Shown: positions 3,450 to 41,957 of the stretch, one piece after another
How positions within the stretch are numbered: the stretch's first letter is position 1
Layout: each line of letters begins with the position of its first letter
Origin: an uncultured delta proteobacterium
GTDB taxonomy: Bacteria; Myxococcota_A; Polyangia; Polyangiales; Polyangiaceae
Reading direction: 5' to 3'
Length of the DNA stretch: 64,000 bases
Assembly: GCA_963763745.1 (NCBI GenBank)
Contig: CAVXQJ010000001.1
Location: 130,431 to 194,430 of the forward strand
The notes under the pieces: generated by a model
What the model was told of the DNA's origin: nothing
Databases searched by the model: none
What the model saw: the letters and a program-made list of their open reading frames with translations, nothing else
Translations under genes and position numbers: made by a program

Positions 3450-3464
3450 CTAAAAAAAAGAGCC

Positions 3465-3683
3465 ATGGTGCCCTCGTGGGCCACCATGGCTCAAAAATTC
3501 GAATACGACATCTACACCGCAGCTTGGGGACACGGCGAAGCAACGAACAAGATCAAGAAAGAGCTCAACAAGCGCGGCGGCTCGGGCTGGGAGCTCGTCG
3601 GCATGACGCGCGACGAGAGCCCGACCGACGAGCACGACGAAGAGGTCGTCATGTTCGTCTTCAAGCGAAACAAGAAGAAGTAA
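3465..3683 (+). CDS. DUF4177-like small protein
   Basis: MAQKFEYDIYTAAWGHGEATNKIKKELNKRGGSGWELVGMTRDE matches the small DUF4177 family pattern; the start is probably the second Met at 3486. Confidence 0.55.
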   Translation: MVPSWATMAQKFEYDIYTAAWGHGEATNKIKKELNKRGGSGWELVGMTRDESPTDEHDEEVVMFVFKRNKKK

Positions 3684-20338: not shown

Positions 20339-21552
20339 GCGGCGACGCGCTCGGACAGCGCGTTCGCCGCGAGTTCCCGCTGCTCGCGCAAAAGGTCGGG
20401 GACCTGCCGCTCGTGTTCTTGGATGCCGCGTCGACGACGCCGAAACCGCGCGTCGTCATCGACGCCGTGCGCGATCACTACGAGACGTCGCACCGCGAAC
20501 GTGCATCGCGGCGTTCACCCGCTCGGCGAGCTCGCGACGCAACGCTACGAAGCCGCGCGACTCGAGATCGCGAGCCTCATCGGCGCATCACCGAGCGAGA
20601 TCGTGTTTTGTCGCGGAACGACCGAGGCCATCAACTTGGTCGCGCACGGGCTCGAGCTCGGCTCGGACGACGAAGTGATTTTCCCGCGAGCGAGCACCAC
20701 GCGAATTTCCTTCCGTGGCGCGTGCGCGCAAAACCGATCATCTTGCCCATCGACGAAGGCGGCGTGCCGCGCTGGGAGATGGCCCCGAAGCTCTTCTCGC
20801 CGAAGACGCGCCTCCTCGCGTTCGCGCACGCGTCGAACGTGACGGGCGCGATCGCGCCGGTGCGCGAGATGGTGGAGCTCGCGCGTGCGCACGGCGTTCC
20901 CGTTCTCCTCGATGCGGCGCAGTCGCTCAGCCACGTGCCCATCGACGTGCGCACGCTCGGCGTGGATTTTCTCGCGGCGAGCTCGCACAAAGCGTTCGGG
21001 CCGAGCGGCGTCGGGATTCTCTACGCGAAAAAAGAAAAGCTCGGAAAGCTCGCGCTCTATCAAGTCGGCGGCGGGATGGTCGCGCACAACCGCGATGGCG
21101 GATCATGCGGACTTCGTTCCGCTCGACGCGCCTTTTCGTTTCGAAGCGGGCACGCCCGCGATCGAGGCGGCGATCGGATTCGGCGCCGCGGTGAGATTCC
21201 TCCGGAGCCTCGGGTGGGACGCGCTGCGCGCGCACGAGCACGCGCTCGCCGAGCGGCTCTTCGGGAAGCTCGGAGAAATTCCGGGCGTGAAGATCCTCGC
21301 GTCGCGATCGCTTTCGTCGCGAGCGCTCGCGCTCGCGACGTTCGTCGTCGACACGCCGGGCGTCGAGCAAGAGCACGTCGCGCGCATGCTCGCGGACAAC
21401 GCGGGCATCTGCGTGTCCGGCGGTTACCACTGCACGCACGTGCTTCACGCGCGAACGAAATTGAGGGCACCGTCCGCGCGAGCGCGCACGTCTACAACAC
21501 GTTCGAAGACGTCGACGTGCTCGTGAACGCCGTGCGCGAGATCGCGAGCTAA
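20335..21552 (+). pseudogene. cysteine desulfurase (SufS/CsdA-like class V aminotransferase), split over at least 4 frames
   Basis: FLDAASTTPKPRVVIDAV, NVHRGVHPLGELATQRYEAAR, AFAHASNVTGAIAPV, SSHKAFGPSGVGILY, SGGYHCTHVL and a C-terminal RASAHVYNTFEDVD all alternate between frames. Confidence 0.7.
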
Positions 21553-21553
21553 A

Positions 21554-22450
21554 TCAGCGCCGCCTGCGCGGGCGGCGAATCGCGATGACGCCCGCGGTCG
21601 GTGCGGGCTCGGGATCCATCGGTGGGAGTGCGAGCACGAGACGCTCGATGAGGAGCAAGTGATCGCGTAGCGCGCGCTCGGCGCGGAGCATGTCGAACGC
21701 TTTGTCGAACACGAGGATCAGCACGTAAATCGCGGCGAAGCTGCGCGCGACGACGCCGTAGTGCTCGGTGCGAACGTTGTAGGCGAGGTGGCCACCGCGG
21801 TGGAGCTGCGACGTCACGGGGAGCGCGCGAATCTCGGCGACGGCGCGCGTCGTCAGCGGCGAAGGTTGCCCCGGTGGCGGCGTCTGCGAGCTTCGCTCCT
21901 TGTCGTCGTCGTCGTCGTCGCCTGCGTCGAGCGCGGCGATGAGATCGCGGTGCGACTCGTGGATGCGCTCGACGCGTTTGCGCGCCTCCGCGTTGAGCGG
22001 GATGACGTTCGCTTTCGTCGTCGCGATGGGACCGGCGACCGCGCCCCACACGATCGGCGAGTGCGCGTCGATGACGAGCGCGTCGACCGCTTCGGCGCGC
22101 GTGGCGAGCGCTTCGAGCTCGCGACGCAGCGAGCCGCGATTCGATCTGCGACGAACGCGCTCTTCGTTTTTCTGAGCGCCTTCGATCGCGCTCGCGAACG
22201 CCGACGAAAGCATGTCGAGACGTCGCTGGCGCGCGTCGAGGTCGGGCGGCGTCTCGTCGAACTGCACGACGACGTCCGTGCGCTCGCCGAGCGCCGCGAT
22301 GAGCACGAGCGCCGACGGCGCAGTCGTCCCGCGAGGCTCGGCGCGCACGTCCGCGGCGTCCATCTCACGCGCGACGAGCTCGAGAAATCGCGAGAGAGCG
22401 TCCTCGCTCACTGGATGGTCGAAGCCTTCGCGCGGCGCATCAGCTTGGCG
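21554..22450 (-). CDS. hypothetical protein (Asp-rich patch)
   Basis: ORF downstream of the histidine-kinase gene with protein-like composition (ALVIDAHSPIVWGAVAGPIATTKANVIPLNAEARKRV...). The 5' boundary is uncertain because of the frameshifted REC domain upstream. Confidence 0.35.
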   Translation of the reverse strand, partial: RQADAPREGFDHPVSEDALSRFLELVAREMDAADVRAEPRGTTAPSALVLIAALGERTDVVVQFDETPPDLDARQRRLDMLSSAFASAIEGAQKNEERVRRRSNRGSLRRELEALATRAEAVDALVIDAHSPIVWGAVAGPIATTKANVIPLNAEARKRVERIHESHRDLIAALDAGDDDDDDKERSSQTPPPGQPSPLTTRAVAEIRALPVTSQLHRGGHLAYNVRTEHYGVVARSFAAIYVLILVFDKAFDMLRAERALRDHLLLIERLVLALPPMDPEPAPTAGVIAIRRPRRRR

Positions 22451-23975
22451 AGCTGGCGCATCTCGAACGGCTTCTCGAGGAAAGGCAGGCCGACGCGCTC
22501 GATGAACTCGAGCGTTCCGCCGGTGGGCGTGCCGCCCGTCATGAAGACGAAGCGGTCGCGAAGGTCGGGGATGCGTTTGCACGACTTGCTCGAACAGCTC
22601 GATTCCGGTCACGTCGGGCATCATGATATCGCAAAGCACGAGGTCGAAGCGATCGTCGTGTCGAGAGAAGCTCGATCGCTTGCTCGGCGGAGCTCGCGAG
22701 CTCGATGTCGGCCTCCGACCCGATTGCGCGGCGCAGCGAGGAAAGCAGCGTCAGCTCGTCGTCGATGATGAGCAGCCTCTGGCGCATCTCGGGAGCAGTC
22801 GTACCCGAGCCCGCTTCGCGAACGGAAGAGCGAGGTGTCGTCACGGGGAAGCGCAATCGGAACGTCGAGCCTACGCGCTCCTCGCTCTCCACGCTGATCA
22901 ATCCGTTCGACGCGTGCACCACGGCGAGGACCATCGTGAGCCCGAGCCCGGTCGCTACGTCGATCGGTTTGCGCGAATAGAACGGATCGAAGATGCGCGA
23001 TTGAACGGCCGGCCCCATCCCGCAACCGTTGTCGCTCACTTCGACGACGACCATTCCGTCGCTCGCGTCGAGGCGCGTGCGCACCACGATCTCGAGCGGC
23101 GTCGTGCTGCCCTCCGCGCTCGATTGAACGGCGTTGCGCAAGAGCGCGAGGAACGCTTGCGTGAGGCGCGTCGCGCTCGCTTCGATCAACGCGACGGACT
23201 CGTATTGCTTCACGATGCGGCCACGCTCGCCGAGCTCGGCGACCGCGGTGGCGCACGCCGTGTCGAGGAGAGACCGAACGTCCACCATGCCGAGCTGCGT
23301 GTCGTCGGTGCGCGAGCACTCGCGCAGAGAGCGCACGAGCCGCGCGATTCGCTCTGCGCCTTCGCGCGCGTCGGCGATCGCGCCGAGCATGTCCGACAAG
23401 AGGTCGTGCTGCTCGTCGTCGAACGACGGCGCGCACTCGCGCAAGAACGGAGGGAGCTCTTCCGCGAGAAAATTCAGGTTGGCGAGCACGTACGCGAGCG
23501 GGTTGTTGAGCTGATGCGAGATGCCCGCGCTGAGCGCTGCGATGAGCGCGAGTTGGTCCGTGCGCCGCGCGCGCTCCGACGACGTCGCGTCGCGCACGTG
23601 AACGACGAACCCTTCGCCGTCGGCGAGCGCAACGGGCGAAGCGGTCACCGCGAGGTGCACCACGCGCCCATCCGTGCGCAGCCACTTTTGCGAGTGCGTC
23701 TCGTTCGGCGGAGTCGCGTTCAACCACGCTTCGTAATCCACCGCGTCGACGACGACGCTCACCGGTCGCGCTGCGAGCTCGGCGAGAGAGCTCGGACCCA
23801 GCATCGCGAGGAGCTGCGCGTTCGCATAGAGGAACGCATCGTTCTCTACGACGCAGACGCCGCCGTCGACGTGGTCGAGCAGCTTCCCGAGATCGTCACC
23901 GAGCGCACGCGACAAGCCGGAGCGTGGCGGCGTCGTGGATCTTCGTTCGTCGAGCGGCTTCGGACCCCGCGCCAT
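22400..23975 (-). CDS. hybrid sensor histidine kinase/response regulator (PAS-HisKA-HATPase-REC), with the REC domain frameshifted
   Basis: H-box AALSAGISHQLNNPL and the ATPase G-boxes DNGCGM and GLGLTMV, then the REC domain RLLIIDDELTLLSSLRRAIG. The REC continuation LCDIMMPDVTGIELFE is in another frame. Confidence 0.7.
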
Positions 23976-24036
23976 CGTTACCTTTCCAAAATAGAAACGG
24001 CTCCAGCCATGATCAATTAAGCCGTAAACTCATGGA

Positions 24037-24642
24037 GTGTCCACGAGTACCGCGCTCTTGATCGAGTCCGAGGCGAGCGCCGACCCCTTCGTGCAGTTCG
24101 GCTTTTGGTTCGCGGCCGCCCAAAATCTGCCCGAGCCGACGGCGATGGCCCTCGCGACTGCCACGCCGGACGGCGCCCCCAGCGTCCGCATGGTGCTCCT
24201 GAAAGAGTGGGGCGAGCGCGGCTTCGTCTTCTTCACGAACTACGACAGCCGCAAAGGGCGCGAGCTCGCGAGCAACGGGCAGGCGGCGCTCCTCTTCTTT
24301 TGGGCCACGCTCCAGCGGCAAATTCGCGTCGAAGGCCGGGTGACGCGCGTCACGCGTGAAGAGTCCGCAGCCTATTTCCGCACGCGCGCACGCGGAGCGC
24401 AGATCGGCGCGTGGGCGTCCGCGCAGAGCCGCGTCGTCGAGCGCGACGCGCTCGCCCGCCGTGTGGAAGAGCTCGAACAGGAATACGAAGGCCGCGAGGT
24501 CCCCGTTCCCCCGTATTGGGGCGGTTTTCTCGTCGAACCAGCGCGTTTCGAGTTCTGGCAAGGGCGCGACCATCGCCTGCACGACCGCCTCGCGTACGTT
24601 CGCGAGGAAGACAAATGGCGCATCGAACGTCTCTCTCCTTGA
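24037..24642 (+). CDS. pdxH: pyridoxamine 5'-phosphate oxidase
   Basis: Full-length match to the PdxH pattern (RMVLLKEWGERGFVFFTNYDSRKGRELASN, YWGGFLVEP, FEFWQGR, LHDRLAY). Confidence 0.9.
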   Translation: MSTSTALLIESEASADPFVQFGFWFAAAQNLPEPTAMALATATPDGAPSVRMVLLKEWGERGFVFFTNYDSRKGRELASNGQAALLFFWATLQRQIRVEGRVTRVTREESAAYFRTRARGAQIGAWASAQSRVVERDALARRVEELEQEYEGREVPVPPYWGGFLVEPARFEFWQGRDHRLHDRLAYVREEDKWRIERLSP

Positions 24643-27600
24643 GACCAACGGGTGATGGAAAGGCTACCCTTCGGCACGTGACAGGTCTTCGCGTCGCGCT
24701 CATCGTTGGCGTCTTCGCGTCGGCTTGTGGAGGCGCGCGTCCCGCGGAGGACGCGAGTCGCGCCGCGCTTCGTACGCCCGCCTCCGCCGCGGCCGATCCC
24801 ACGCTCAAACCCGCGAGGCTCGTCCCGCTCCGCGCCGCGGACGACGAGCTCACGTTCGGCGCGGAGCCCGGCGGCGGAAAGCGCGCGCTCGTCGCGGGCG
24901 TACGCGTCGTCCGGTGGGCGGGAGGCGGCGTTCAAAGCGCGACCGATCCGCTCCCCGCACCGCCCACCGAGACGGTCGAAGTGCCCGAGCGACTCGGCGG
25001 TGGCTTCTTGTTCGCGATCGGCCCGAAGATTTATCGCGCCGACAAATGGCTCGCGCCGCTCCAGCTCCTCTACGTCGCGCCGATGAACCCGACGCACGTG
25101 TTCGTCGGTCTCGATCGCGCGTACGTGCGTTTGACGAACAACGCCTACGCGGCGTTCGACGCGCACACGGGCATGCCGATGGATCTCGGACCATGGCCGA
25201 CGAGCCCGGAGGTCACGCGTTACGTCGCGGCGGACGGATGGCGCGCGGTCGCCATCGCCGACATGCGCGGCGCCGTGGCGACGTTCGACGCAGGCGCGAA
25301 GTGGCAATCGCTCGCGCTTCCGATTCAACCGAGCGAGCTTCGTCTCGTCGGCGAATCGATCCTCGTGTCGGGCATGGATGGAAGCGGCGCGCTGCAGTCG
25401 TACGCGGTGCAACCGAACGGACAAATCGCGCACCTCGTGACCGACGAGAAAGCGCACGTGCACGCGAAGCCTCCGCCTCCGCCACCCGACGCGGAGAAAC
25501 AAGCGAGCAAAAATCCGCTCGTCGCCGCGGTGCTCGACGGCTGGCCGCTCGAAGGCGGCGCTGCGCTCGTCGCGCGCGACGGCGAGCTCCTCCGCATTCG
25601 CATCGCCGACGGAAACGTGCTCGACAGAGCGCCCGATGCGTTTCCGCTCAAGCCCGCGCGCTGCCACTCGATCTCGCTCACGCCGTCGAAGTCGCCCGTC
25701 GCGTTCGGATTCGTGTGCGGCGTGCCGCACGGCGCGACGGAAATCTACGCGTACGACCCACACGCTGGAAAGCTCGTGACGCTCCGTCACTTCGACGCGC
25801 CGCGCGCGGTGTTCTCGCCCGGCAACGGCACGCTCGTCGTGGAGGGCGCGTGCGACGAGGCCGCGGCGCCCGTCGACATCAAAAAGACCGAGCAGGGCTA
25901 CTGCCTCATGCACCGCGATCGCACGTTCGAAGACTTCGTCGTGAACGGCGACGTCGGAAGCGAGCGCGTCGTTCCGCTGACGGATGGTCGCACCGCGATC
26001 CTCTCGCCGCCCGTCGGAGATCTCTCGACGGCGCGCTTGACGATCTTCGACGGCAAACGCCCGACGACGATCCCGATCGTCTTCGACGACGTCGCAACGG
26101 CGAAGAAACCGACGCAAGCGCGCAAGCGCGACGATGACGACGACGACGACGACGAACGCACCACGCCCGACGACGACTCGATCATGACCGCGCTCCTCCG
26201 CTCGGGCACGTGGCTTCGCGGCGTCGAAGAGCGCACGCCCGGCGTTCTGTCCGCGTGGGTCGAGCACTCGGGTCACTACGTCGGCGTCGAAGTGAACGTG
26301 AACGGACACGCCAAGCACGGTCACTACATCGCGGAGCTCGGCACGGCGCTCGTGTCGGGTCGCTACGGTCTCGGATGGAGCGCGTCGCGACAAGGTTACG
26401 AAACGATCGACGGCGGGATGACGTGGACGGCGCTCGCGCTCCCCGAGCCGCTCGAGAGCGCGGGACCTGCCGCGGGCGCCGCATCGCACGGCTGCGGTCC
26501 GCTCGGCTGCGTGCTCGCGGGTTGGATTCGAGTCGGATGGACCGCGGACAACGACAAATCACCGCCCGATCTCACCAGCCAAACGCCCCGCTCCGTCGAC
26601 GTGCACGCGCCCGAGTCGCTCTCGCTCCGCTGCGAGCTCGCGCCCGGAAAAATCGCCCTCGCGAGCAACGACACGTCCGGCCCTGCGCAAAACAACTTCG
26701 GCTACGGCGGTTACTACGGCGGCTACTACGGTCGATACGGATACAACCGCACGCCCGTCTCGCAAGATTGGTCGCCGTTCTTCACGATCGACGCGCCCAA
26801 GCTCGGCGCGGACGATTTGGGTTTCAGTCGCGCGATCGACGACGCGTACGAGCGCAACGGCAACGATCGCAACTCGCAAGGACGCTTCTCGCTCGCACGC
26901 GTCGCGCGCCTCTACGCGTGGGGACCCAAGGGCCTCGATTGGGACTTGCGCGGTCGCTTCATGGTGCGCTTCACGTCGCCGTTCGAGAGCTCGACGCAGC
27001 TCCACGCGACGCAAACGATGACGACGCCCGAGTTCATCAAGGAAGCGACCAACTTCGCGATGGGCGGCGGAATGATCACGCACGCGATCCAGAACATCGC
27101 GATGATCCCCGGCGACGACGCGAGCCACGCGCTCCTCGTCATTCACCGCGCGAGCACGATCAACAACGAGCCCGTCGTGCTCGACATCGAAGCCGAGCGT
27201 CCGCCCGCGATCGTGCACCGCATCGATTCGCAATCGCTCGGTGACGTGGAGTCCGCCGTCCGCATGAGCGGGCACTGGTACATGGTCACGTCGGAGGGCA
27301 TGACGTCCGCGGTGTGGGAGCTCGAGAACGGCGTCGCGCGCGAAGTCGTGCGCATCCCGCGCGTGCCGAGCGAAGGCAACTCGCGCTCGTGGGCCATCCG
27401 CCTCGCGCGCCGCGCCGACAACCACATGCTCGCCGCGATGCTCGAAGGCGTCCCCGTCACCGAAGGCGCGGCGATCCCAGCGCACACGTGGTGGCCGCAG
27501 CTCTACGCGCTTCCGATCGACGCCGACGCGGGCACGCTGCAAGACCCCGAGCGCCTCGGCGCGGTGAACGGCGCGGGCAAGAGCATGCACGTCTGCGGAC

Positions 27601-27881
27601 CCGAAGACGGCGGCTGGGTGATCGACGGACGATGGCCCGGCGGCAACGTGTCGATCACGTCGGCGTCGGGCAACGCGACGATCTCGGGCTCGTCGAGCAG
27701 CGGCATGCTCGCGCGTTATCACGTGACTCAGGCGTCGCTCTGCATCGAAAAGATTTCGCTCACCGGCTACGGCGAAACGACCGGCGTCGGAACGCTCGGC
27801 AAAGTCGACAAGCCGCTCGTCTCTGTCGCGATGTTCGTCGACCGCGCGCGTCAATCGCTTCGGTGCGTCGGCAACCGCTAA
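24615..27881 (+). CDS. large hypothetical lipoprotein (~1090 aa) with a poly-Asp stretch and a Gly/Tyr-rich segment
   Basis: Lipobox LIVGVFASACGG; weak BNR/Asp-box-like motifs (DGGMTWTAL); a D9 run coded by (GAC)n near 26131; GYGGYYGGYYGRYGY. Confidence 0.6.
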   Translation: MAHRTSLSLRPTGDGKATLRHVTGLRVALIVGVFASACGGARPAEDASRAALRTPASAAADPTLKPARLVPLRAADDELTFGAEPGGGKRALVAGVRVVRWAGGGVQSATDPLPAPPTETVEVPERLGGGFLFAIGPKIYRADKWLAPLQLLYVAPMNPTHVFVGLDRAYVRLTNNAYAAFDAHTGMPMDLGPWPTSPEVTRYVAADGWRAVAIADMRGAVATFDAGAKWQSLALPIQPSELRLVGESILVSGMDGSGALQSYAVQPNGQIAHLVTDEKAHVHAKPPPPPPDAEKQASKNPLVAAVLDGWPLEGGAALVARDGELLRIRIADGNVLDRAPDAFPLKPARCHSISLTPSKSPVAFGFVCGVPHGATEIYAYDPHAGKLVTLRHFDAPRAVFSPGNGTLVVEGACDEAAAPVDIKKTEQGYCLMHRDRTFEDFVVNGDVGSERVVPLTDGRTAILSPPVGDLSTARLTIFDGKRPTTIPIVFDDVATAKKPTQARKRDDDDDDDDERTTPDDDSIMTALLRSGTWLRGVEERTPGVLSAWVEHSGHYVGVEVNVNGHAKHGHYIAELGTALVSGRYGLGWSASRQGYETIDGGMTWTALALPEPLESAGPAAGAASHGCGPLGCVLAGWIRVGWTADNDKSPPDLTSQTPRSVDVHAPESLSLRCELAPGKIALASNDTSGPAQNNFGYGGYYGGYYGRYGYNRTPVSQDWSPFFTIDAPKLGADDLGFSRAIDDAYERNGNDRNSQGRFSLARVARLYAWGPKGLDWDLRGRFMVRFTSPFESSTQLHATQTMTTPEFIKEATNFAMGGGMITHAIQNIAMIPGDDASHALLVIHRASTINNEPVVLDIEAERPPAIVHRIDSQSLGDVESAVRMSGHWYMVTSEGMTSAVWELENGVAREVVRIPRVPSEGNSRSWAIRLARRADNHMLAAMLEGVPVTEGAAIPAHTWWPQLYALPIDADAGTLQDPERLGAVNGAGKSMHVCGPEDGGWVIDGRWPGGNVSITSASGNATISGSSSSGMLARYHVTQASLCIEKISLTGYGETTGVGTLGKVDKPLVSVAMFVDRARQSLRCVGNR

Positions 27882-27901
27882 AAACGTGATAACGAGGGCT
27901 C

Positions 27902-29851
27902 ATGAGTGAGCCCGAAGAGCCGTATCGCGCACCGGCCCCACCGGACGAAGAGCACACCGGCGATCCCGAGGTCGATTGGTACAGGACCGTCTACCAAGGT
28001 CACGTTCGCCAGTTCACGCTGCGCTCGTTCATCGTCGGGAGCATCATCGGCGCGGTGATGTGCTTGTCGAACCTCTACGTCGGTTTGAAAACCGGTTGGG
28101 GTCTCGGCGTCGCGATCACGGCGTGCATTCTTTCGTTCGCGGTCTACTCCACGCTCTCGCGCGTGGCGCCGAGCCTCTTCGGCAAGAACCTCACGATGCT
28201 CGAGAACAACGCGATGCAATCCACCGCGTCGAGCGCCGCGAACACGACGACGATCATCCTCTGCTCGGCGATCTCCGCGCTGCTCCTCGTCACTGGAAAA
28301 CACATCCGCATGTCGACGCTCATGGGATGGCTTTTCTTCATGGCGGTGCTCGGGACGATCATGGCGATCCCGATGAAGCGTCAGATGATCAACATCGAGA
28401 AGCTTCGTTTTCCGTCGGGCACCGCCGCCGCCGAGACGTTGAAATCGCTCTACGGCGCGGGCGGCGAAGCGGTGAAGAAGGCGCGCGCGCTCTTCTGGAC
28501 GATGGGCATCGGCGCGGTCATCGCGTGGCTCCGCGATGCGCACGGCGCGGCGGGCCATCCGATCCTCGGCATCTTCACGAAGGCGTCGATCATCCCGGCG
28601 AACATCCAGATCCCCTTCATCAAGATTCGCGGGCTGTCGCTGCTCCAGTACACGATCTCGTTCGAGGGCTCGCTCATCATGGTGGGCGCGGGAATGCTCA
28701 TGGGGCTCCGCACGACGATCAGCATGCTCGTCGGAGCGCTCATCAACTACGGCGTGATCGCGCCCATCGCGCTCGATCACGGCGTCATCAAGACGCACCT
28801 CGATGCGCACGGCGCCCCCGCGCTCGGTTACCGCGCGATCGTGTCGTTCAGCTTGTGGCCCGGCGCCGCGCTGATGGTCACGTCGGGCCTCCTCACGTTC
28901 GCGCTCCAATGGCGCACCGTGCTCCGCGCGTTTTCGGGTTTCGGAAAACTGCTCAAGAAGAGCGCCGAGCATCACGATGCAGCATCGAGCGATCCGCTCG
29001 AGAAGACGCGCGCCGATCTCGACAAGATCGAAGTGCCCTCGTCGTGGTTCGCGGGCGGCACCGCGGCGGCGACCGTGGGCCTCGTGCTCATCGGGTACTT
29101 CGCGTTTCAGATTCGCCCGTGGATGGGCGTAGTCGCGGTGATTCTCTCGTTCATGCTCGCGATCGTCGCGTGCCGCGCAACGGGCGAGACGGACATCACG
29201 CCCGTCGGCGCGATGGGCAAGATCACGCAGCTCACGTACGGCGTGCTCGCGCCGTCGAACATCACGACGAACCTCATGACGGCGAGCCTCACGGCAGGCA
29301 CCGCCGGCGCATCCGCGGACCTGCTGAACGATCTCAAGAGCGGATATCTGCTCGGCGCGAACCCGCGCCAACAGTTTCTCGCGCAGCTCTCGGGCACGCT
29401 CATCGGCACGGCCGTGTCGGTGCCGGTGTTCTACTTGCTCGTGCCGACGCCCGACGCGCTCGGCACGGATCGCTTCCCCGCGCCGAGCGCGCAAGTGTGG
29501 AAGGGCGTCGCCGAATTGCTCGCGAATGGAGTCGAGTCGCTCCACCCGTGGGCGCGCTGGGGCATCGTCGTCGGCGGCGCGATCGGCATCGTGCTCCCGC
29601 TCCTCGAGCTCGCGTTTCCGAAACATCGAAAGTGGATGCCGAGCGCGACGGGCCTTGGGCTCGCGCTCGTCATCCCGTGCTGGAACTCGGTGTCGATGTT
29701 TCTCGGCGCGCTCCTCGCGTACGTCTGGACGAAGTACAAGAGCGAGCACGGCGAGCGCTACATCACGTCGGTCGCCTCGGGCATCATCGCGGGCGAGAGC
29801 CTTCTCGGCGTCGTCGTCGCGCTCCTCAGCGCCGGTGGCTATCTCGAATGA
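27902..29851 (+). CDS. OPT-family oligopeptide transporter
   Basis: About 16 TM helices and typical OPT conserved blocks (NLYVGLKTGWGLG, RFPSGTAAAETLKSL, PVGAMGKITQLTYG). Confidence 0.85.
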   Translation: MSEPEEPYRAPAPPDEEHTGDPEVDWYRTVYQGHVRQFTLRSFIVGSIIGAVMCLSNLYVGLKTGWGLGVAITACILSFAVYSTLSRVAPSLFGKNLTMLENNAMQSTASSAANTTTIILCSAISALLLVTGKHIRMSTLMGWLFFMAVLGTIMAIPMKRQMINIEKLRFPSGTAAAETLKSLYGAGGEAVKKARALFWTMGIGAVIAWLRDAHGAAGHPILGIFTKASIIPANIQIPFIKIRGLSLLQYTISFEGSLIMVGAGMLMGLRTTISMLVGALINYGVIAPIALDHGVIKTHLDAHGAPALGYRAIVSFSLWPGAALMVTSGLLTFALQWRTVLRAFSGFGKLLKKSAEHHDAASSDPLEKTRADLDKIEVPSSWFAGGTAAATVGLVLIGYFAFQIRPWMGVVAVILSFMLAIVACRATGETDITPVGAMGKITQLTYGVLAPSNITTNLMTASLTAGTAGASADLLNDLKSGYLLGANPRQQFLAQLSGTLIGTAVSVPVFYLLVPTPDALGTDRFPAPSAQVWKGVAELLANGVESLHPWARWGIVVGGAIGIVLPLLELAFPKHRKWMPSATGLGLALVIPCWNSVSMFLGALLAYVWTKYKSEHGERYITSVASGIIAGESLLGVVVALLSAGGYLE

Positions 29852-29957
29852 AGAATTAGACAGGGAGTCAAGGCAGAGAGTGGGAGAAGAGATGGGAGAT
29901 ATTTTTCTTTAAGAAAAAAATCTCCCTCTTCACTCCATTTCTCTGACCTTCTCCCTG
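29852..29957. repeat. AT-rich imperfect palindrome (~45-bp arms, perfect central hairpin gggagatatttttctttaagaaaaaaatctccc); a candidate bidirectional terminator or REP/MITE-like element
   Basis: The left arm agaattagacagggagtcaaggcagagagtgggagaag is the reverse complement, with a few indels, of the right arm cttctccctgtcaattct. It fills the whole gap between two convergent stop codons; local GC is about 40% against about 70% for the window. Confidence 0.6.
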
Positions 29958-31466
29958 TCAATTCTTCTCTTGGTCGTAAGCCCACTTGGGACGCGGGTGC
30001 TCCGGTGGGCGGAGCTCGCAGCCCGCGTTCTTCTTCAGCGGGCCATCGGGAACGAAGAGGCCGTCGTTCGTTCCGGGTTTGCCCCACACTTCGGTGGGTC
30101 CCTTGCATCCTTGCGCGATCCACGTCGCGATGATCGAGAGCTCTTCGTCCGTCATCGACGGAATGCCCATCGGCATCCCGAGCGGCGCCTTCGGAACGCG
30201 CGGATAATTCGGGCGATCGTAGTCCTCGAACGCGGGCACGTGATCGCGTTGCTCCTCGACGCGTCGCTGCACCATCGCAAGAACGATCGGCGGCATCGCC
30301 TCACCCGGTCGCGCGATCAAGACCGAATAACGTTTTCCATCCGTGCCCACCGCGCCGTTCACGAGCGCTTCGTACGTGCGCATCGAGAGGCCGATGCCGT
30401 GGTAACCGAACCCGCCTTTGTTTCCGGGGCCGGTGTCTTTCTCGTAGTCGTTCATGTGGCAGTGGACGCACACCTTCCCGATCGTGCGCGCCTTCATCTC
30501 TTCCCACTTCACTTCGCGCTCGAGAATTTTCGGCGGCGTGACCGTGTATGCGTCGGGCGCGCTATGGAGATCGGGATCGCCGAAGAAGAGAAAATCGCGA
30601 ATCGCCGCGGCTTCGTCGTGCGTGAGGCTGCTCGGCGGCATCGTCGTGTCGGGTTTGATCTTCGGAGCGTTTTGGATCCACTCGACGATGACGTCCGCGC
30701 GTGTCCGCTCTTTCGCGAAGCGGAGATTCGGCGCGAGGCCGTTCGTTCCGCGAGCGCCTTCGAGCGCGGCGCGCGGAATGCCCGTGTCGATGTTTCCGAA
30801 CGTGTGACACGCGGGACAACCCTTGTTCAAAAAGAGCTGTTTGCCTTTGTCGATGCGTGACTGCTCCGGACGCTTTCCGAGCTCCGGCGCTTTGTAATCG
30901 GGCGCGTATGGATCGGGCGCGAACGCGATCGCGGCGAAGTAGCGCGCGATCGCCTTGATGTCGTCGTCGCTCAGGTTGTGGCGGATCATGCTCTCTTCGA
31001 GCGTCGGCCGCTGATCGTAGGGCTGCGCGAGGAAGCTCGCGATGTAGTCCGCGCGCACGCGCTTTCCCACGTTCGTGAGGCTCGGCACTTTGATCAAGTG
31101 CACGATGTTCTTCTGGTAGCGCGCGAGGATGTCCGCGCCGTAGCGCGTCTTCAGCTCTTCGAATTGTTTCTCGCCGGGTTTGAGCCCGTTCAAGAACTCG
31201 TGACAGCTCGTGCAGTAGTTCGGGCGAACGGGCGCGGCGAGATCGTCGATGTCGTGACAGCGGCGGCACTCGTTTTTCTCGAGCACCGCCTTGCCCGCTG
31301 CGATCGCGTCGGTGCGCGTTTTCTCGTCCCACTTCGTCTTCGGTGGTTCGAACGTCGTCACCGCGACGGACGCGGCAGCGTCGATCGTCGAGGGAGGCGG
31401 TGGTGTTTTTCCGCATGCGGCACAGAGCGCAGCGATCGCGATCGACCCAGCGAAGAACCTATGCAC
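29958..31466 (-). CDS. tetraheme c-type cytochrome lipoprotein
   Basis: Lipobox AIAALCAACG; four CxxCH motifs (CRRCH, CTSCH, CPACH, CVHCH). Confidence 0.8.
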   Translation of the reverse strand: MHRFFAGSIAIAALCAACGKTPPPPSTIDAAASVAVTTFEPPKTKWDEKTRTDAIAAGKAVLEKNECRRCHDIDDLAAPVRPNYCTSCHEFLNGLKPGEKQFEELKTRYGADILARYQKNIVHLIKVPSLTNVGKRVRADYIASFLAQPYDQRPTLEESMIRHNLSDDDIKAIARYFAAIAFAPDPYAPDYKAPELGKRPEQSRIDKGKQLFLNKGCPACHTFGNIDTGIPRAALEGARGTNGLAPNLRFAKERTRADVIVEWIQNAPKIKPDTTMPPSSLTHDEAAAIRDFLFFGDPDLHSAPDAYTVTPPKILEREVKWEEMKARTIGKVCVHCHMNDYEKDTGPGNKGGFGYHGIGLSMRTYEALVNGAVGTDGKRYSVLIARPGEAMPPIVLAMVQRRVEEQRDHVPAFEDYDRPNYPRVPKAPLGMPMGIPSMTDEELSIIATWIAQGCKGPTEVWGKPGTNDGLFVPDGPLKKNAGCELRPPEHPRPKWAYDQEKN

Positions 31467-31471
31467 GCGCC

Positions 31472-33431
31472 CTACTTTACACTCTTCGACGAGCCCTCCG
31501 TTCCGTTCTTGCGAACCACGTTCTTCACGTGCGAGTCCGTGCCGATCGGAAGCGCGCCGAGGAGTCGTTCGACGACGTCGGTCACGCTCTCACCGCCGAG
31601 GATGGCGAGCGGCGAGACGTTCTTCGAGAGCTCCGCTGCGAGCTGTTGATGACCGAGCGTCTTCAGCGTCGCGACGAGCTCGGGCGACATCGCGGCCATT
31701 TGATCTCGGAACGCGGCGACGCGCGCTTCCATCATCTTCTGCTCGAGCGCGTTCTCGCGCTCCTTCGCCGCCATGCGCGCCGCGTCCGCGACGCCGCTCA
31801 CCGCGGCTGCCGCTTCGGCAGTCGCGAGATCCACGAGTCGCTTCTTCTCGACGCGCGCTTGCTCGACGACCATCGTCGATGCTTGCTCTTCGCAAATCGT
31901 CCGGCGCACTTGCTCCTTCAGCTTCTCCGTCTCGAGACGGAGGAGCTCTTGCCGGCGCGTCACGTCCGCGACGATCGCGTTCTTCTGCGCGCCGCCGAGG
32001 AGGACCTGCACTTCGGGATCGAGGATGCGCACGTCGAGGACCTCGACGTCGTAGATCCACATTCCGTTTTCTTCGAAGTGACGGCCGGGACGCGGTTCGC
32101 CTTCGCGCTTCTCGCCGAGGATCGCGGTGCGGAGGATCTCCGTGCCGTTTTGGTAGAACGCCTCGATCGAGCACGCGCGCGCCGCGGCGCGCAGAAGCGA
32201 GCCCGCGTGGTCGCACAAGAGACCGACGTAGTCCTTCACGTTGAACCAACGCGCCGTCTCGGGACCGACGAACGACACGCGATACGACACGACGACCTCG
32301 ACCTCGTTGTGATCGCCCGTCTTCAATCGGAGGACGTCCGAGACTTTGTTCCCGTCGGTTTGGAGGAAGCACGTGCGCAGCGTGCGCTCCGACGATTTGG
32401 GTTTGCCCGTCGAGAGCTCGAGCACCTCGAGATCTTCGTCGAAGTCGAGGACGCGCGTTTGCGGACCGCGCACGACCTCGCGCGAGCTCCGCGCGGTGAC
32501 GAGCACGGCGAAGCTCGACGGGATGTACACGGCGAGCGAGTAGCCGTCGTTCGCGACGCCGATAGAGATCGATGCGCGCTTGATCGAGATCGCGCGCGAT
32601 GATTTGCACGCGCGTCGGGTCGGGCAAGTAGTTCACCGGACCGACGATCGTCGTGATGCGCCCCGTCGCGATGTCGCGCGCGTAAACGCCTTGTCGCTCG
32701 CCGATCGGAATCGCCGAGATCTCTGCGACGACTTCGACGTTCGGCGTTGGAAAGAAGAATCCTTCGCCCTCCGCGATGAACATGTCTTGTCCAGCTTCGT
32801 ATTCGCCCTCCGGAATTACGCCGCCCGCGGGTTGAACGAACGATTTTGCGACGCGCAGATGAAGACCCGCGCCTTTGCGCAAGCGACGCGCCTTGTGGAC
32901 GTATCCGCTCTGCCCGGCGAGGACCTCGATGCCGGTGATGGGAACATAGAAGCTCGTGTCTTCGCCGCGCACGATCATCTCCGTTCCGATCGGCTCCTCG
33001 TGGCCTTCGTCGTCGTAGACGCGCACGACGAGGTACTCGTCTTCGCGGAGCGCGTGACCGTCGACGACGCGCGCGCGCTGTCCGGGCCAGAGCGGAAACG
33101 ACGCGGGCCCGGGCACGACGACTTTGCGACCGGTGCGAAGCTCGACCGCGCTGTTGTTCCCTTTCGTCGGTTTGACGTTCGGATCCTTCGGCGGATTTTC
33201 GAGCACGATGTACTGCGACGACGTCGCGCTCGTGAACGTCGCGACGGCGCTGCCTTCATCGGCGCGCACGGGAACGAAGCGGCCGTGCTGGTAGTCGACG
33301 AGGCGTTCGGTGTTCGACAGGCTGATCTTCGTCGGACCCACGTAGAGGACGATGTCGCCCTTCGTGAGATCCTGGACGTAGGCGTATTCGTTCGAGGCCA
33401 CGAGGATGTCGCGTTCGCGTGTGTCGGTCAT
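31472..33431 (-). CDS. major vault protein (MVP) homolog, with a single frameshift near 32500-32560
   Basis: The N-terminal MVP repeats (FPLWPGQ vs eukaryotic FPLYPGE; IPIGERQGVYARDIATGRITTIVGPVNY vs [28 protein letters not shown]) are in ORF 31590..33467. The shoulder and cap-helix regions (VEVVVSYRVSF, NVKDYVGLLCDHAGSLL, NGMWIYDVEVLDVRILDPEVQVLLGGAQKNAIV) are in ORF 31472..32530. Confidence 0.8.
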
Positions 33432-33526
33432 GCACGGCGAGATTGCAGCGTGCGTGCCGTGCTCCAAATGCGCGGCGACCCGTGTTTTCCCGTCGATTCG
33501 CCGCTCTCGAATGGAGCGCGACGCGA

Positions 33527-34675
33527 TCAGATCCGGCGCGCGACGTTTGGGAGCTTCTTCGCGCTCTCGTCATCGAGCGCGCAAACGCCCACTTCCTTGC
33601 GCGTCTGAAAGACGATGAACGCCTCGCTCGCCCACCACGCTTCGCCCGGCTTCGACGCGGACGGCACGCGCTTCGCGCCGATCACTTTGGCGACGCGCGC
33701 GCCGCTGCCCTTCGGCATCTTCCGAAAGCGCCTGCGCGAGATCTTCTCCTCGAAGTACGACGCGAGCGTGAGGCGCGCGACGATCGAGTCACCGTTTTTC
33801 GCGAACACGCCCGGCATCATGCCTTCGATCTCGTCTTCGCCGAACACGCGGCCCTTCGCGTCCATGTAACAGTTGCCGCGCGAGTCGATCGCGATCGGAA
33901 CGAGATCGTCTTCGCGCTTCTTCGGTTTCTGCGATTTGAAAAACGCGAACGCGCCGAACATCGCGTAGGTTCCTTCGTCGATCCAATCGTCGTCGCCGGA
34001 TTCGGGCACGATCAAGCCGCCGTAGCGCGCTTCGAAATCGAGCACGGCGGGGTGCGCTTTGTATCCGCGCTTCGCGAGGAGCGCGACGAGCTCGGCGCGC
34101 GTCGTCGTCTTCTTTGGATCGCGCTCGGCCTTCTTGCGCCGGAAGAGCGCCGCGATGGGCGCATCGACGACGCTCATCACGCTCGCGAGCGCGGCCGCGG
34201 CGCGCGGATCGACGCGACGCTTCGGCTCTGGAATCGGCGTGCTGTCGATGTCGTCGCGTTTGGCGACGCGTTTCTTGGCGTCTGCGAATCGCGCCTGCAC
34301 CTTGCGGTGCCGAGCGAGCGAGTCCTTGCCGGGCATCCCGTACGAAGTGTGGGTGAGGATGAGGTCGACGAGATCCTTGCCGCCGGTCGCTGCAGCGAGC
34401 AGCTTGCCGATCGCGTCGGACAGCCAACCCGCGGCGCGCTGGAGCGGGTCGTCGAAGTGATTGTCGTGTTTGTCCGAGATGCGAAACATTTTGTTCTGCG
34501 CGAGCACCAAGTCTTTCTTCTTGGCTTCGCCGCGCAGCGACGCTTCGACGAGACCGAGAGCACGGTGCCACTCGGGCGTGACGGGGCCTCCTGCTTCGGC
34601 GAGCTCGGCGACGGCAACGCTCACGACGATGTGGAGCGCTGCGATCGTTTGCGGAGTCGTTTGTGCGCGCTTCAT
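33527..34675 (-). CDS. SMI1/KNR4 (SUKH-superfamily) domain protein
   Basis: The C-terminal region YGGLIVPESGDDDWIDEGTYAMFGAFAFF...LVPIAIDSRGNCYMDAKGRVFGED fits the SUKH pattern; the start is MKRAQTT. Confidence 0.5.
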   Translation of the reverse strand: MKRAQTTPQTIAALHIVVSVAVAELAEAGGPVTPEWHRALGLVEASLRGEAKKKDLVLAQNKMFRISDKHDNHFDDPLQRAAGWLSDAIGKLLAAATGGKDLVDLILTHTSYGMPGKDSLARHRKVQARFADAKKRVAKRDDIDSTPIPEPKRRVDPRAAAALASVMSVVDAPIAALFRRKKAERDPKKTTTRAELVALLAKRGYKAHPAVLDFEARYGGLIVPESGDDDWIDEGTYAMFGAFAFFKSQKPKKREDDLVPIAIDSRGNCYMDAKGRVFGEDEIEGMMPGVFAKNGDSIVARLTLASYFEEKISRRRFRKMPKGSGARVAKVIGAKRVPSASKPGEAWWASEAFIVFQTRKEVGVCALDDESAKKLPNVARRI

Positions 34676-35412
34676 CGCTTGCGAAGGTCGATCGTCACCA
34701 TCCCGCGCACCACCTCGCTCGACGCGACGTCGAACCCCGCGTCGCGCGCGCGCTTCTCGAGCCAGTCGGGCGCGATGCGCAGCTTTCTGTAGCTCGACAC
34801 GCGCATGTCCCATCCGGCGTCGCGCCGCTGGTGAATCACGTCGTACACGCGAACGTGATCGCCGTCGTACTCGAGGAAGCACGAGAACACGGTGTGCTCG
34901 TCGGCGCGCACGGGGATGAAGCGCTCCTCGGCGCGGAGCTCGCGCGTGAAATCGCGCAGCGCGATGACGAAGCGTCCGCCGGGCACGAGCACGCGATTCA
35001 CTTCACGCAGCAAGCGTTGAACGTCGCCGAAGCTCGCGAGGTGCGTGAGCGTGTCGCCCATGCACACGCACGCGTCGAACGACTGCGGCTTCATCTCCGT
35101 GATGCATTGGAGGATGTCGCTGCGAACGATTTCGATCTGCAGGTCCCCGGCGTTTTGCACGAGCTCGCCGAGCAGCTTCTGGCTCAAGTCGACCGCGGTG
35201 ACCGCGAATCCGAGCTCCGCGAGCGGGATCGACTGAAAGCCGGAGCCCGCACCGATGTCGAGCGCGCGCGCGTTTTCTTTTCCGCCCTCTTTTCCGCGCA
35301 GCCCGATCGACTCGAAGAACGCGCGGTTCTCTCTCGCGCGCTCGGGCAGCCCGCCGAAGAGCCACGAGTAGTGCTCTGCGAGATGGAGGTCGTAGTGCTC
35401 GGCGATGTTCAT
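34672..35412 (-). CDS. class I SAM-dependent methyltransferase
   Basis: LDIGAGSGFQSIPLAELGFAVTAVDLS is motif I, and there is a motif post I/II. The start overlaps the upstream stop by 4 bp. Confidence 0.75.
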   Translation of the reverse strand: MNIAEHYDLHLAEHYSWLFGGLPERARENRAFFESIGLRGKEGGKENARALDIGAGSGFQSIPLAELGFAVTAVDLSQKLLGELVQNAGDLQIEIVRSDILQCITEMKPQSFDACVCMGDTLTHLASFGDVQRLLREVNRVLVPGGRFVIALRDFTRELRAEERFIPVRADEHTVFSCFLEYDGDHVRVYDVIHQRRDAGWDMRVSSYRKLRIAPDWLEKRARDAGFDVASSEVVRGMVTIDLRKR

Positions 35413-36503
35413 TTGAGCGTGAGCGGTGGCTTCGCGCGCGCCCACACGGTCATCTCCGCGGGGTACACGCAGCTCGTGAGCGCGGAGTCTTTGCAGCCGG
35501 CCTCGCCGCGAATCGCGTTGCAGCTCGACGCGACCGAGGACACCGCTTGCGCTTCCGTCATGCCCCACATGCGCGCGCACGCGATGTTGACGAACGTTTG
35601 ATCGTCGTCGACGTGTTTCTCCTCGTCGCGCGCGACGCTGAAGCCGGGCTTCTCGCAGTGTTGCTTTGCGAACGCGATGGAGCGCTCGTCCGTCATCGAG
35701 AAGGTTCCATTCGGAAGCGAGTGAACGAGCATCGGCGGGCCGACGACTTGCGCGGGCGCGCCGTTGCAACGTGCGCCGATGCGCGCGCGGTACGGACCGT
35801 ACGAGACGAAGTCGGGGCGGCCGTCACGATCGACGTCTTCGACGCGGAAAATCGGGAGATCCTTCGCGGGCGCATAGAGCTGCGCGGACGCGTTCTTGAA
35901 CTCGACGATGTACGCCATCGGATCGCGCGGGCCGTCCTTGGTTTGATCGTGACCGATGACGATGAGCTCTTCCTCGCCGTCGCCGTCGAAGTCGAAATCC
36001 ATTTGCGTGTCGAACGCGACGCGATCCATCTCGTGGCTCTGGAACGCGCGATCCTTGGTGCGCACGGTTCCTTGGAGCACGACGCTCGTCTTCTGACCTT
36101 TCGCGTCCGCGTGGAACGCGACGAGCTGCGCCGTGACGCCGTGGAGCTCCTCTTTCAAATCGCGAAGACCGATGCCCCACGCGCCGCCCGATTTCGTCTT
36201 CGTGCACTTCGAGAACGCACCGAGCACGTCGTCGTTCATCGATTGAACGTGACCGAGCGGATCCTTCGATTCGGTGATCGCTTTGAGCTTCGCGTTTTGA
36301 TCTTTGCGCTCGTCGTCGAGCGCGCCGCATGCGACGTCTTTTTCCGGCGTGGGCGGTGTCACCGTTTGCGCCGTCGTTGCGGATGCCGTCGGCGCGCTTG
36401 CCGTCGCGGTCGCCGTCGCCGATGGAACCGGCGGAGTGTTCACGGGCGTGCTCTCGCCACAAGCGACGAAGCCGACAAATCCGATGATTAGAGCGTGCTT
36501 CAT
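35409..36503 (-). CDS. lipoprotein with FG-GAP-like DxDGDG repeats
   Basis: Lipobox LIIGFVGFVACG; a T/A/P-rich linker; FDFDGDGEEELIVIG and DVDRDGRPDFVSYG repeats. Its start overlaps the methyltransferase stop (ATGA). Confidence 0.55.
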   Translation of the reverse strand: MKHALIIGFVGFVACGESTPVNTPPVPSATATATASAPTASATTAQTVTPPTPEKDVACGALDDERKDQNAKLKAITESKDPLGHVQSMNDDVLGAFSKCTKTKSGGAWGIGLRDLKEELHGVTAQLVAFHADAKGQKTSVVLQGTVRTKDRAFQSHEMDRVAFDTQMDFDFDGDGEEELIVIGHDQTKDGPRDPMAYIVEFKNASAQLYAPAKDLPIFRVEDVDRDGRPDFVSYGPYRARIGARCNGAPAQVVGPPMLVHSLPNGTFSMTDERSIAFAKQHCEKPGFSVARDEEKHVDDDQTFVNIACARMWGMTEAQAVSSVASSCNAIRGEAGCKDSALTSCVYPAEMTVWARAKPPLTLK

Positions 36504-36539
36504 GGCGGAACGTTTTCTCACGTGCTAGATGGGCGCGCG

Positions 36540-37472
36540 ATGAAAAAGGGGATTCTTGCGCTTTTTCTGACCGTCACGCCGGTCACGCTCGCGTTCGCGT
36601 GCGGGGACAATGGCAACGGAACCGAAACGGACAGCGGCGCTCTCGACGTGACGCAGAAACAGGACGTGATGACGCAGCCCGTCGACGCGGCGAAAGACGC
36701 GCTCGATGCGGCGCCGACCGACGCTCCCGGTTTCCCCTGGCCCGACTGCACGTCGCAACCGTCGACCGTCCCGACGAAGACCATCGTCGATTTGTGGAAC
36801 GACGATCCGACGACGCCCGAGCAAGTCTGGTTGAACGGCGTGTACGTCACGGCGATCTCCGCCGGTGGATGCGCGGCGGGCAAAGCGTGCGAGTTCATCG
36901 TCCAGCAAGATCTCACGTACTCGTCGCTCGCCGTTGGCGCGCACCACGCGATTCGCGAGTGGGTCACGTCGACCACCGCGAAGTATTTCACGTCGCTGCA
37001 AGTGGGCGACCAAGTGAACATGATGGCGTGGGCCCTCCGCGAGAACGAAGGCGGACAGAACGAGCTGATCACGCACGTCGACACGATCGAGCCGGGCTGC
37101 GCGCTCAAGATCGGAACGGGAACGCCAGCGCCGATCACCGGCGTCACGCTCCAAGACATCGGATCGATCGCCGCATACGAGACGACGTACGGTCCGCTCT
37201 TGATCGAAATCGCGAACGTCACGGGGACGCCGAAGCAACCGGATCAAACCTTCGGTCTCGGCGATACGTTCTACGACGGCGGCGCGAGCGACGCGCAGAT
37301 CGTGAGCCTCAGCCCGTATTACATGGCGGGCAGCGTGTTCGTCGGATTCGACGCGGGCGTGAAGACGAAGTTCGCGTCGGTATCGGGCGTGTACAACGAG
37401 TACTTCAACCCCGACGCATCCGCGGTGAAGTACTTGGAGATCGGCACGCGCACGATGGGCGACGTGCAGTAG
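36540..37472 (+). CDS. hypothetical lipoprotein
   Basis: MKKGILALFLTVTPVTLAFACG lipobox; transcribed divergently from the MVP operon. Confidence 0.55.
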   Translation: MKKGILALFLTVTPVTLAFACGDNGNGTETDSGALDVTQKQDVMTQPVDAAKDALDAAPTDAPGFPWPDCTSQPSTVPTKTIVDLWNDDPTTPEQVWLNGVYVTAISAGGCAAGKACEFIVQQDLTYSSLAVGAHHAIREWVTSTTAKYFTSLQVGDQVNMMAWALRENEGGQNELITHVDTIEPGCALKIGTGTPAPITGVTLQDIGSIAAYETTYGPLLIEIANVTGTPKQPDQTFGLGDTFYDGGASDAQIVSLSPYYMAGSVFVGFDAGVKTKFASVSGVYNEYFNPDASAVKYLEIGTRTMGDVQ

Positions 37473-37506
37473 GCTGGTTACCTGCTCCGCGGCTTCGCCG
37501 CGATGG

Positions 37507-37917
37507 TCATTTGAGCGCTTCCGGAACGCGCGAGAGCGCGCCGTGGACTGCGCCGCGCATCGCGCTCTCGGGGACGTGACCGCTGCCGCCTTGTGCGCGC
37601 GCGCGACCTTCGAGCACCGCGAAGAGAACGCCGCCGTCGCGCGAGCGCAGCGTCGCCGAGATCACGCACGTCGTCTCCGCGTGCTCGGTCTCCATCTTCA
37701 CGAGCGACACGCTGAGGATGGCGTCTTTGTGCGCGCCGCGTAGATCGAGCTCGCGCATCTCCGATTGGAGCGCATCACGCAGCGCGCTCGTCATGTGCGT
37801 CGCGCCCGACGGGACGGCGACCTCGCCGAGCGAGAGGTGGCGGCTCTCGGCATCCGCGGCCTTCGCGGGAACCAGCACGCCCAAACCGAGAACCACTCCG
37901 AGAATCGCGAGGCGCAT
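37507..37917 (-). CDS. small secreted hypothetical protein
   Basis: Signal peptide MRLAILGVVLGLGVLVPAKA followed by a roughly 115-aa domain. Confidence 0.4.
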   Translation of the reverse strand: MRLAILGVVLGLGVLVPAKAADAESRHLSLGEVAVPSGATHMTSALRDALQSEMRELDLRGAHKDAILSVSLVKMETEHAETTCVISATLRSRDGGVLFAVLEGRARAQGGSGHVPESAMRGAVHGALSRVPEALK

Positions 37918-37967
37918 GAAATCCTCCTTCACGTCCGCTATCGGATGCGACGAGGTCGGGCCAACTT

Positions 37968-41675: not shown

Positions 41676-41957
41676 ATGGGAATTCTCGGAACGCGTTGGG
41701 AAGGCAACCACGAGGGACACGCGATCGTCGTCACGCGCAACGAGCTCACGAAGGGCTTTCACATCGTGTGGGACGGAAAAGAGATCGCGCACAAGACCTG
41801 GTCGCTCATCGGCCTCGGCGAGCTCCACGCGAGCGCGATGCACGACGACAAAGTGCACGACGTGAAGCTCGCGCTCGAGTGGAGCATCGGCACGGACAGC
41901 AACGGGTGCAAAGTCACGGTCGACGGAAAACCCGTCGAGATGACGCACGTCAGTTAG
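41676..41957 (+). CDS. small hypothetical protein
   Basis: 93-aa ORF MGILGTRWEGNHEGHAIVVTRNELTKGFHIVWDGKEIAHK..., non-repetitive. Confidence 0.4.
   Translation: MGILGTRWEGNHEGHAIVVTRNELTKGFHIVWDGKEIAHKTWSLIGLGELHASAMHDDKVHDVKLALEWSIGTDSNGCKVTVDGKPVEMTHVS

Follow-up and report, generated by a model that had tools for sequence, protein, structure and literature searches.

The convergent genes for an OPT-family oligopeptide transporter and a cytochrome c, in the 64-kb stretch of DNA analysed here (referred to as the window), are separated by an AT-rich spacer that reads as one long inverted repeat. Where does such a sequence come from, and what could it do to the two genes that are transcribed towards it? 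The OPT gene (27902-29851, + strand) is assigned to the Pfam family PF03169 (OPT) with an E-value of 5.6e-104 and ends in the TGA stop codon at 29849-29851. The cytochrome c gene (29958-31466, - strand), with matches to PF00034/PF13442 (Cytochrom_C, Cytochrome_CBB3), encodes a multi-haem or mono-haem protein and has its stop at 29958-29960. The stop-to-stop gap between them is 106 bp (29852-29957), and both reading frames are unbroken right up to the palindrome.

The genes on either side of this pair have some features of their own. The ORF adjoining the OPT gene upstream (24411-27881, + strand) encodes 1156 residues and has no Pfam domain, its best match being BNR with an E-value of 0.26; counterparts of 1061-1080 residues, with no Pfam match recorded, occupy the same position in L001, L002, L005 and L007, which are among the related loci compared below. 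The neighbour of the cytochrome c gene (31472-33431, - strand) is a homologue of a 647-residue protein of L005 in which the shoulder domain of the Major Vault Protein (PF11978) and faint vault repeats are recognised. This vault-like gene is split into two frames in the window, with a frameshift near 32555-32562: residues 1-297 of the homologue correspond to the ORF at 31590-33467 (87% identity) and residues 282-644 to the ORF at 31472-32620 (83%). The split arises because of one extra base in the stretch '...gatctctat-c-ggcgtcgcg...', and the gene is either a pseudogene or the site of an assembly indel. A bacterial vault-protein-like gene kept beside an OPT/cytochrome c locus is unusual in itself.

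The inverted repeat fills the gap between the convergent stops, as a sequence-only reading of this DNA had proposed, and is slightly larger than the gap. The full imperfect palindrome covers 118 bp (29850-29967), running from GAAGAATT-a-GACAGGGAG to CTCCCTGTC-AATTCTTC, and takes in the last two bases of the OPT stop, which form the first two pairs of the hairpin, as well as the last three codons and the stop of the cytochrome c gene. The terminal blocks are perfect (8/8 and 9/9, with a 1-nt bulge between them), and all 17 of their 17 bases pair when GAAGAATT(a)GACAGGGAG is set against CTCCCTGTC-AATTCTTC. Purines make up 72% of the left arm (29850-29908, + strand), in which GGGAG occurs three times (29863, 29882 and 29894). 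The pyrimidine-rich right arm (29912-29967, + strand) corresponds at 80% to the reverse complement of the left one, 4 of the aligned columns being indels. The complementarity of about 80% estimated earlier is thus reproduced (48 of 60 aligned columns), whereas the arms are about 58 nt long and not about 45 bp. The AT-rich hairpin at the centre, GGGAGAT(A)TTTTTCTT-T-AAGAAAAA(A)ATCTCCC (29894-29926, 33 nt), had been described as perfect; it has 15 bp and one internal A/A mismatch between 16-nt arms that are 94% complementary, and would contribute about -15 kcal/mol alone. Over 100-120 nt the GC content is 0.41, falling to 0.33 in the lowest 60-nt stretch, which agrees with the drop to about 40% that had been noted, although the background in the window is 0.669 and not 70%. 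The longest fully open frame is 39 codons, and two of the six frames are open throughout.

Folding establishes that the symmetry is beyond chance. The RNA of 29849-29962 (114 nt) has a minimum free energy of -59.1 kcal/mol on the + strand and -55.9 kcal/mol on the - strand (z-scores of -8.1 and -7.9); among 200 dinucleotide-shuffled sequences there was not one as stable. Over the full 120 nt the RNA forms a single hairpin, of 50 base pairs and -67.8 kcal/mol on the + strand, where 2 of the pairs are G-U, and of 48 base pairs and -63.9 kcal/mol on the - strand, where no pair is G-U. With DNA parameters the palindrome has an energy of -37.9 kcal/mol (z -8.6), and the hairpin is kept on both strands when folded within 181 nt of native context. 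When every 120-nt segment of both strands of the 64 kb was folded and the energy regressed on GC, the palindrome came out as the top GC-corrected structure outlier at -8.0 SD, the next independent locus being at -3.6 SD. The stable structure for which the earlier reading had proposed a folding check is thus predicted on both strands, with z about -8, and the palindrome is real. Both strands fold nearly equally and almost without G-U pairs, as would be expected of a DNA-level palindrome serving both strands, and there is no sign of selection for one RNA.

It is highly improbable that this structure is an artefact of assembly or sequencing, such as a chimeric fold-back or an untrimmed adapter. 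The source is apparently a metagenome-assembled contig, and the 1-nt frameshift of the vault-like neighbour against its 83-87% identical homologue is a possible assembly error. However, the arms are unrelated to the flanks, so the palindrome is not a fold-back chimera, and they have no similarity above shuffled controls to common adapters. Neither of the flanking reading frames is disrupted before the element. An independent Logan assembly of the run ERR11594405 also contains a 1,895-bp contig encoding the identical 502-residue cytochrome c, including the C-terminal residues EKN that are discussed below; this contig ends 14 bp past the cytochrome c stop, inside the palindrome, and thereby reproduces 14 nt of the element and confirms its right edge. 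The break of the contig at this place could reflect a repeat, a coverage or assembly problem at an AT-rich hairpin, or chance. The assembly may hold small indel errors, which would not create a 118-bp palindrome.

The history of the junction is revealed by its relatives. We have compared the junction with the loci of the closest OPT homologues in the protein collection, which are 85-89% identical. The two genes form a convergent pair with stops 1 nt apart in L120 (OPT 89%), 3 nt apart in L005/L006 (86-87%) and 13 nt apart in L007/L008 (GCA_038239005.1, 85%), which are empty sites as expected of a mobile insertion. Comparison of the junction in the window with those of L120, L005, L007 and L001 defines the segment without counterpart in the relatives, the inserted DNA, as 29852-29969, between the OPT stop and a conserved Gln codon of the cytochrome c gene, and the inverted repeat reaches essentially both edges of this segment. 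Among the loci that retain the OPT/cytochrome c pair, L007 stands furthest apart by OPT identity (84-85% to all others in the matrix); since its genes also abut, abutting genes are the ancestral state and the palindrome is the derived one. On the strength of this comparison, the palindrome is a derived insertion specific to this lineage.

The insertion has also left its mark on the cytochrome c. In four relatives the protein ends in ...PKWA(Y/F/C)DQ(Q), whereas in the window it ends in ...PKWAYDQEKN, and the EKN extension is found only in the window among the C-termini compared. The codons for these residues (Glu-Lys-Asn) and the TGA at which the frame now ends come from the element (29958-29969, - strand). 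The original cytochrome c stop was taken away by the insertion, with the element donating both EKN and a stop in its place.

The 3' side of the OPT gene is, across these loci, a hot spot of rearrangement. In L001 (OPT 89.5%) about 965 bp are inserted between OPT and the cytochrome c gene (region 11954-12987), including a 300-residue ORF with a weak match to Peripla_BP_2, the end of which overlaps the cytochrome c 3' end. Other genes lie downstream of OPT in L002-L004 and L121 (OPT 87-88%): in L002-L004 a convergent DsbD-like gene lies 2 nt after OPT (11956-13242 in L002), and in L121 a hibernation-factor gene (Ribosomal_S30AE) follows on the same strand (3144 onward). A remnant of the 1-kb junction gene of L001 was considered as the source of the palindrome and rejected: the two share no similarity, and the closest empty-site relatives of L001 indicate a separate insertion.

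Searches with blastn-short and nhmmer reveal no similarity between the palindrome and the L001 insert, its own flanks or any other part of the window. Its foreign composition means that it was not copied from local DNA, and at 41% GC it cannot have grown out of flanks of 67% GC. These observations bear on the proposal that it is the product of a one-off repair or replication accident (template switching, repair of a hairpin-capped break, or captured filler DNA), since decayed to 80% symmetry and without function. Such an accident would fit a sequence that is single-copy as far as searched, at a junction that has received a 1-kb gene in one lineage and a different downstream gene in others, and whose arms have diverged by 20% with indels; but the lack of any similarity to the flanks, the rest of the window or the L001 insert makes it quite unlikely.

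A mobile element may be expected to have left copies elsewhere. In the window no second copy has been found by blastn-short and nhmmer, which recover nothing beyond the element on its two strands, and the same programs found none in about 120 kb from the loci of eight relatives. Larger collections were scanned with two seeds, a terminal one (TIR-proximal) and one from the central hairpin, each of which matches both arms and was verified in the window; as a hit must be exact at 18-19 specified bases, most copies below about 90% identity would escape these scans. The terminal seed gave 59 single matches in 185,579 species genomes, in unrelated taxa, confined to the seed and at about the chance expectation. 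The central-hairpin seed gave 39 matches in JGI metagenomes, all on low-GC contigs and confined to 20-25 nt, and the two seeds together gave 13 chance matches in viral contigs. No locus in the scanned collections matches both arms, and the source genome is therefore not among them. Plasmids, phages and E. coli genomes gave no match to the element (blastn, word 11), and its six-frame peptides gave nothing at E-values up to 1 against 5.8 billion proteins. For a target-site duplication, no direct repeat of at least 3 nt is present at any symmetric boundary, and the pre-insertion spacer differs among the relatives.

The element has several of the features by which MITEs are recognised, namely terminal inverted repeats at the ends of the insert, a length below about 400 bp, no transposase and a long RNA stem-loop; it lacks a target-site duplication. 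The sequence-only reading had offered a REP- or MITE-like mobile palindrome as one explanation. A foreign or mobile origin is supported by the empty sites, the composition and the palindromic ends; as to a repetitive nature, no second copy turned up in the sequences searched. By analogy, these features suggest that the palindrome may resemble a SPRITE- or MITE-type insertion in its working, and no named family is claimed for it.

Some other classes were considered and discarded. The R'' (RYYYAAC) and R' (GTTRRRY) sites of an integron attC are both absent from 29830-29990. No known RNA family in Rfam matches at the gathering thresholds; at E-values up to 10 the only matches are to generic miRNA-precursor hairpins, with at most 32 bits against thresholds of 60-100 bits. 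No promoter is called within the AT-rich palindrome. The protein-binding or sRNA element that had also been suggested is not borne out by these searches, which give no family, only sub-threshold generic hairpins and no promoter-like site.

An inserted palindrome need not do anything for its host. A purely selfish or neutral MITE-like palindrome with no transcriptional role, tolerated at a permissive convergent junction, is a possible, if somewhat doubtful, explanation. It is a derived insertion of foreign composition, palindromic to its ends, below 200 bp and with no coding capacity, at a junction that took other insertions and rearrangements in other lineages; the relatives, and the other convergent pairs in the window, manage without a spacer. 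Yet neither a further copy nor a target-site duplication was found in the searches described above, and a stem-loop as stable as -64 to -68 kcal/mol, present in two 3' UTRs, would hardly leave the RNA unaffected.

The position of the hairpin is that of a bidirectional terminator, directly after two convergent stops, and it folds on both strands. The outer blocks place GAAGAAUU before the stem and AAUUCUUC after it on each strand, which recalls in weak form the paired A and U tracts of such terminators. An intrinsic terminator has a G+C-rich stem of about 5-15 bp followed by a U tract. Here the consensus scan makes no call. Directly after the inner hairpin stands UCUUCACU, in which 4 of 8 bases are U, and after the full stem a tail that is only moderately U-rich. 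With a stem of about 50 bp and 118 nt in all, the element is several times longer than an ordinary intrinsic terminator, as had been remarked from the sequence. The bidirectional terminator proposed at the same time is supported in its position and hairpin stability but not in its canonical form, given the weak U tract and the silent consensus scan.

The surroundings indicate how far such a terminator is called for. A rough GC3-based gene map of the window contains five further convergent pairs, whose members either share 4 nt or have 4-34 nt between them. The 4-nt overlaps are at 1527-1530, 41954-41957 and 63689-63692, and one pair is 4 nt apart (3683/3688). Judged from this map, convergent genes in this genome seem usually to be packed stop-to-stop, with no room for a terminator. 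Given these short or overlapping spacers, and the relatives that have no spacer at this junction, a terminator spacer is not needed as a rule. Terminator-like sites number 30 in 20001-40000, against 16.8 expected, and are no more frequent than chance predicts in the other two 20-kb segments.

The possibility that the palindrome is a dedicated bidirectional intrinsic terminator, evolved or selected in place and never mobile, is unlikely in the light of these results. Its location exactly between convergent stops, its very stable hairpin on both strands and its GAAGAAUU and AAUUCUUC blocks, which on either strand put A-rich sequence ahead of the stem and U-rich sequence behind it, would suit a terminator of a class known from between convergent genes. 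They are to be set against a stem and a total length several times those of intrinsic terminators, the weak U tract missed by the consensus scan, terminator-like sites that are at chance level in two segments and above it only in the third, three relatives without a spacer and with no intermediate form, and a GC content too low to arise from the flanks. As the scan makes no call, terminator-like sites are at chance in two of three segments, other convergent pairs are tight and three relatives are spacerless, whatever the hairpin does as a terminator or stabiliser is best understood as following from the insertion.

A further hairpin was observed at 3450-3500, where GAGCCATGGTG...CACCATGGCTC is accompanied on the + strand by A8 upstream and AAAAATT downstream. 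Read on the - strand, this would be a stem-loop followed by U8, a canonical-looking strong intrinsic terminator. The hairpin overlaps both candidate ATGs (3465 and 3486) of a small ORF (MAQKFEYDIY..., 72 or 65 residues, GC3 0.83). It could end an antisense or convergent transcript, or occlude the start of the small gene.

The account that we favour, with a probability of roughly one half, is that a foreign palindrome derived from a mobile element was inserted between the OPT and cytochrome c genes and now acts as a shared 3' hairpin, which would terminate transcription in both directions or stabilise the mRNAs. A foreign segment of about 118 bp, rich in AT and palindromic up to both ends, would have been inserted at abutting convergent stops. 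We infer its mobile origin, and it would most likely be a non-autonomous mobile palindrome, or a remnant of one, of the MITE, SPRITE or ERIC-like kind. The cytochrome c frame would then run three codons into the element, to the stop that it supplies. With both genes transcribed towards the element, each mRNA would carry the same 3' hairpin, about 50 bp long, in which purines prevail in the 5' arm and pyrimidines in the 3' arm, and which is followed by a AAUUCUUC tail. We infer terminator or stabiliser activity for this hairpin, which on both strands may pause or terminate RNA polymerase and block 3'-5' exonucleases. As an outcome both transcripts would be ended and stabilised, and transcription would run on less often into the gene opposite. 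Such a role would have come with the insertion as a side effect and would not explain why the sequence exists.

If this account is true, the locus offers a natural before-and-after pair, with the stops 1-13 nt apart in the relatives and the palindrome between them in this genome. A foreign palindrome would have added three residues to a protein, swapped its stop codon and given two mRNAs the same long 3' hairpin. Canonical terminators are scarce in GC-rich bacteria, and 3' UTR structure and terminators would here be gained in one step in such a bacterium. A more far-reaching proposal is that the palindrome belongs to a family not described before, of which it would be the first member to be seen: mobile elements of uncultured, GC-rich Myxococcota (Polyangia-like) that are AT-rich and palindromic throughout, target convergent stop junctions, bring their own stops and install a bidirectional terminator; we regard this as speculative, with the odds well against it. 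The importance of the locus would grow only if a complete genome shows a family targeting convergent stop-codon junctions.

The palindrome can be compared with several known systems. Correia/NEMIS elements are MITEs. ERIC/IRU sequences are imperfect palindromes of 124-127 bp in transcribed intergenic regions (PMC3184786). Like both of these, the palindrome is below 200 bp, has no ORF, bears terminal inverted repeats and forms a stable long RNA stem-loop; like them it is intergenic, present or absent between close relatives and, to judge by its position, probably co-transcribed with its neighbours. Unlike them, it has no target-site duplication, no other copies of it were found, nor any match in plasmids or phages that might point to a parent IS, and it is palindromic as a whole and not at its ends alone. 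ERIC, REP and BIME elements reside in E. coli genomes, whereas the palindrome has no blastn match in any E. coli genome.

REP sequences are described as extragenic palindromes that often lie between convergent genes and act as stabilisers or terminators in 3' UTRs (PMC3184786; bioRxiv 10.64898/2026.03.23.713779). The palindrome is likewise extragenic and between convergent genes, as REP and BIME elements are. It differs from them in that REP sequences are 20-40 bp, G+C-rich and present in many copies, up to the hundreds, whereas it is 118 bp, AT-rich with 41% GC and single in the window. The palindromic elements of Rickettsia (RPE) are 105-146 bp, multi-copy and inserted in-frame inside genes. 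As in RPE, a palindromic insertion joins a reading frame here, with three codons and the stop of the cytochrome c, but only its outer 12 nt are read, and no protein with a related peptide was found in the protein search. SPRITE is a multi-copy family of a low-GC Firmicute with a recognisable terminator motif, while the palindrome is present in one copy and has no clear U tract; its likeness to SPRITE is one of form and position, and no kinship in sequence is expected.

Terminators that work in both directions are an established class between convergent genes, and were reportedly described by Ju et al. in 2019. The palindrome is like them in its convergent position, its symmetric hairpin and its A-rich and U-rich flanks on both strands, and unlike them in a stem about five times longer, AT-rich and imperfect, in its weak U tract and in its absence from the junction of the relatives. 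No new mechanism is called for by these comparisons: palindromes inserted between genes, alike in length and placement, are well documented from other phyla, and the palindrome belongs to a well-known kind of feature.
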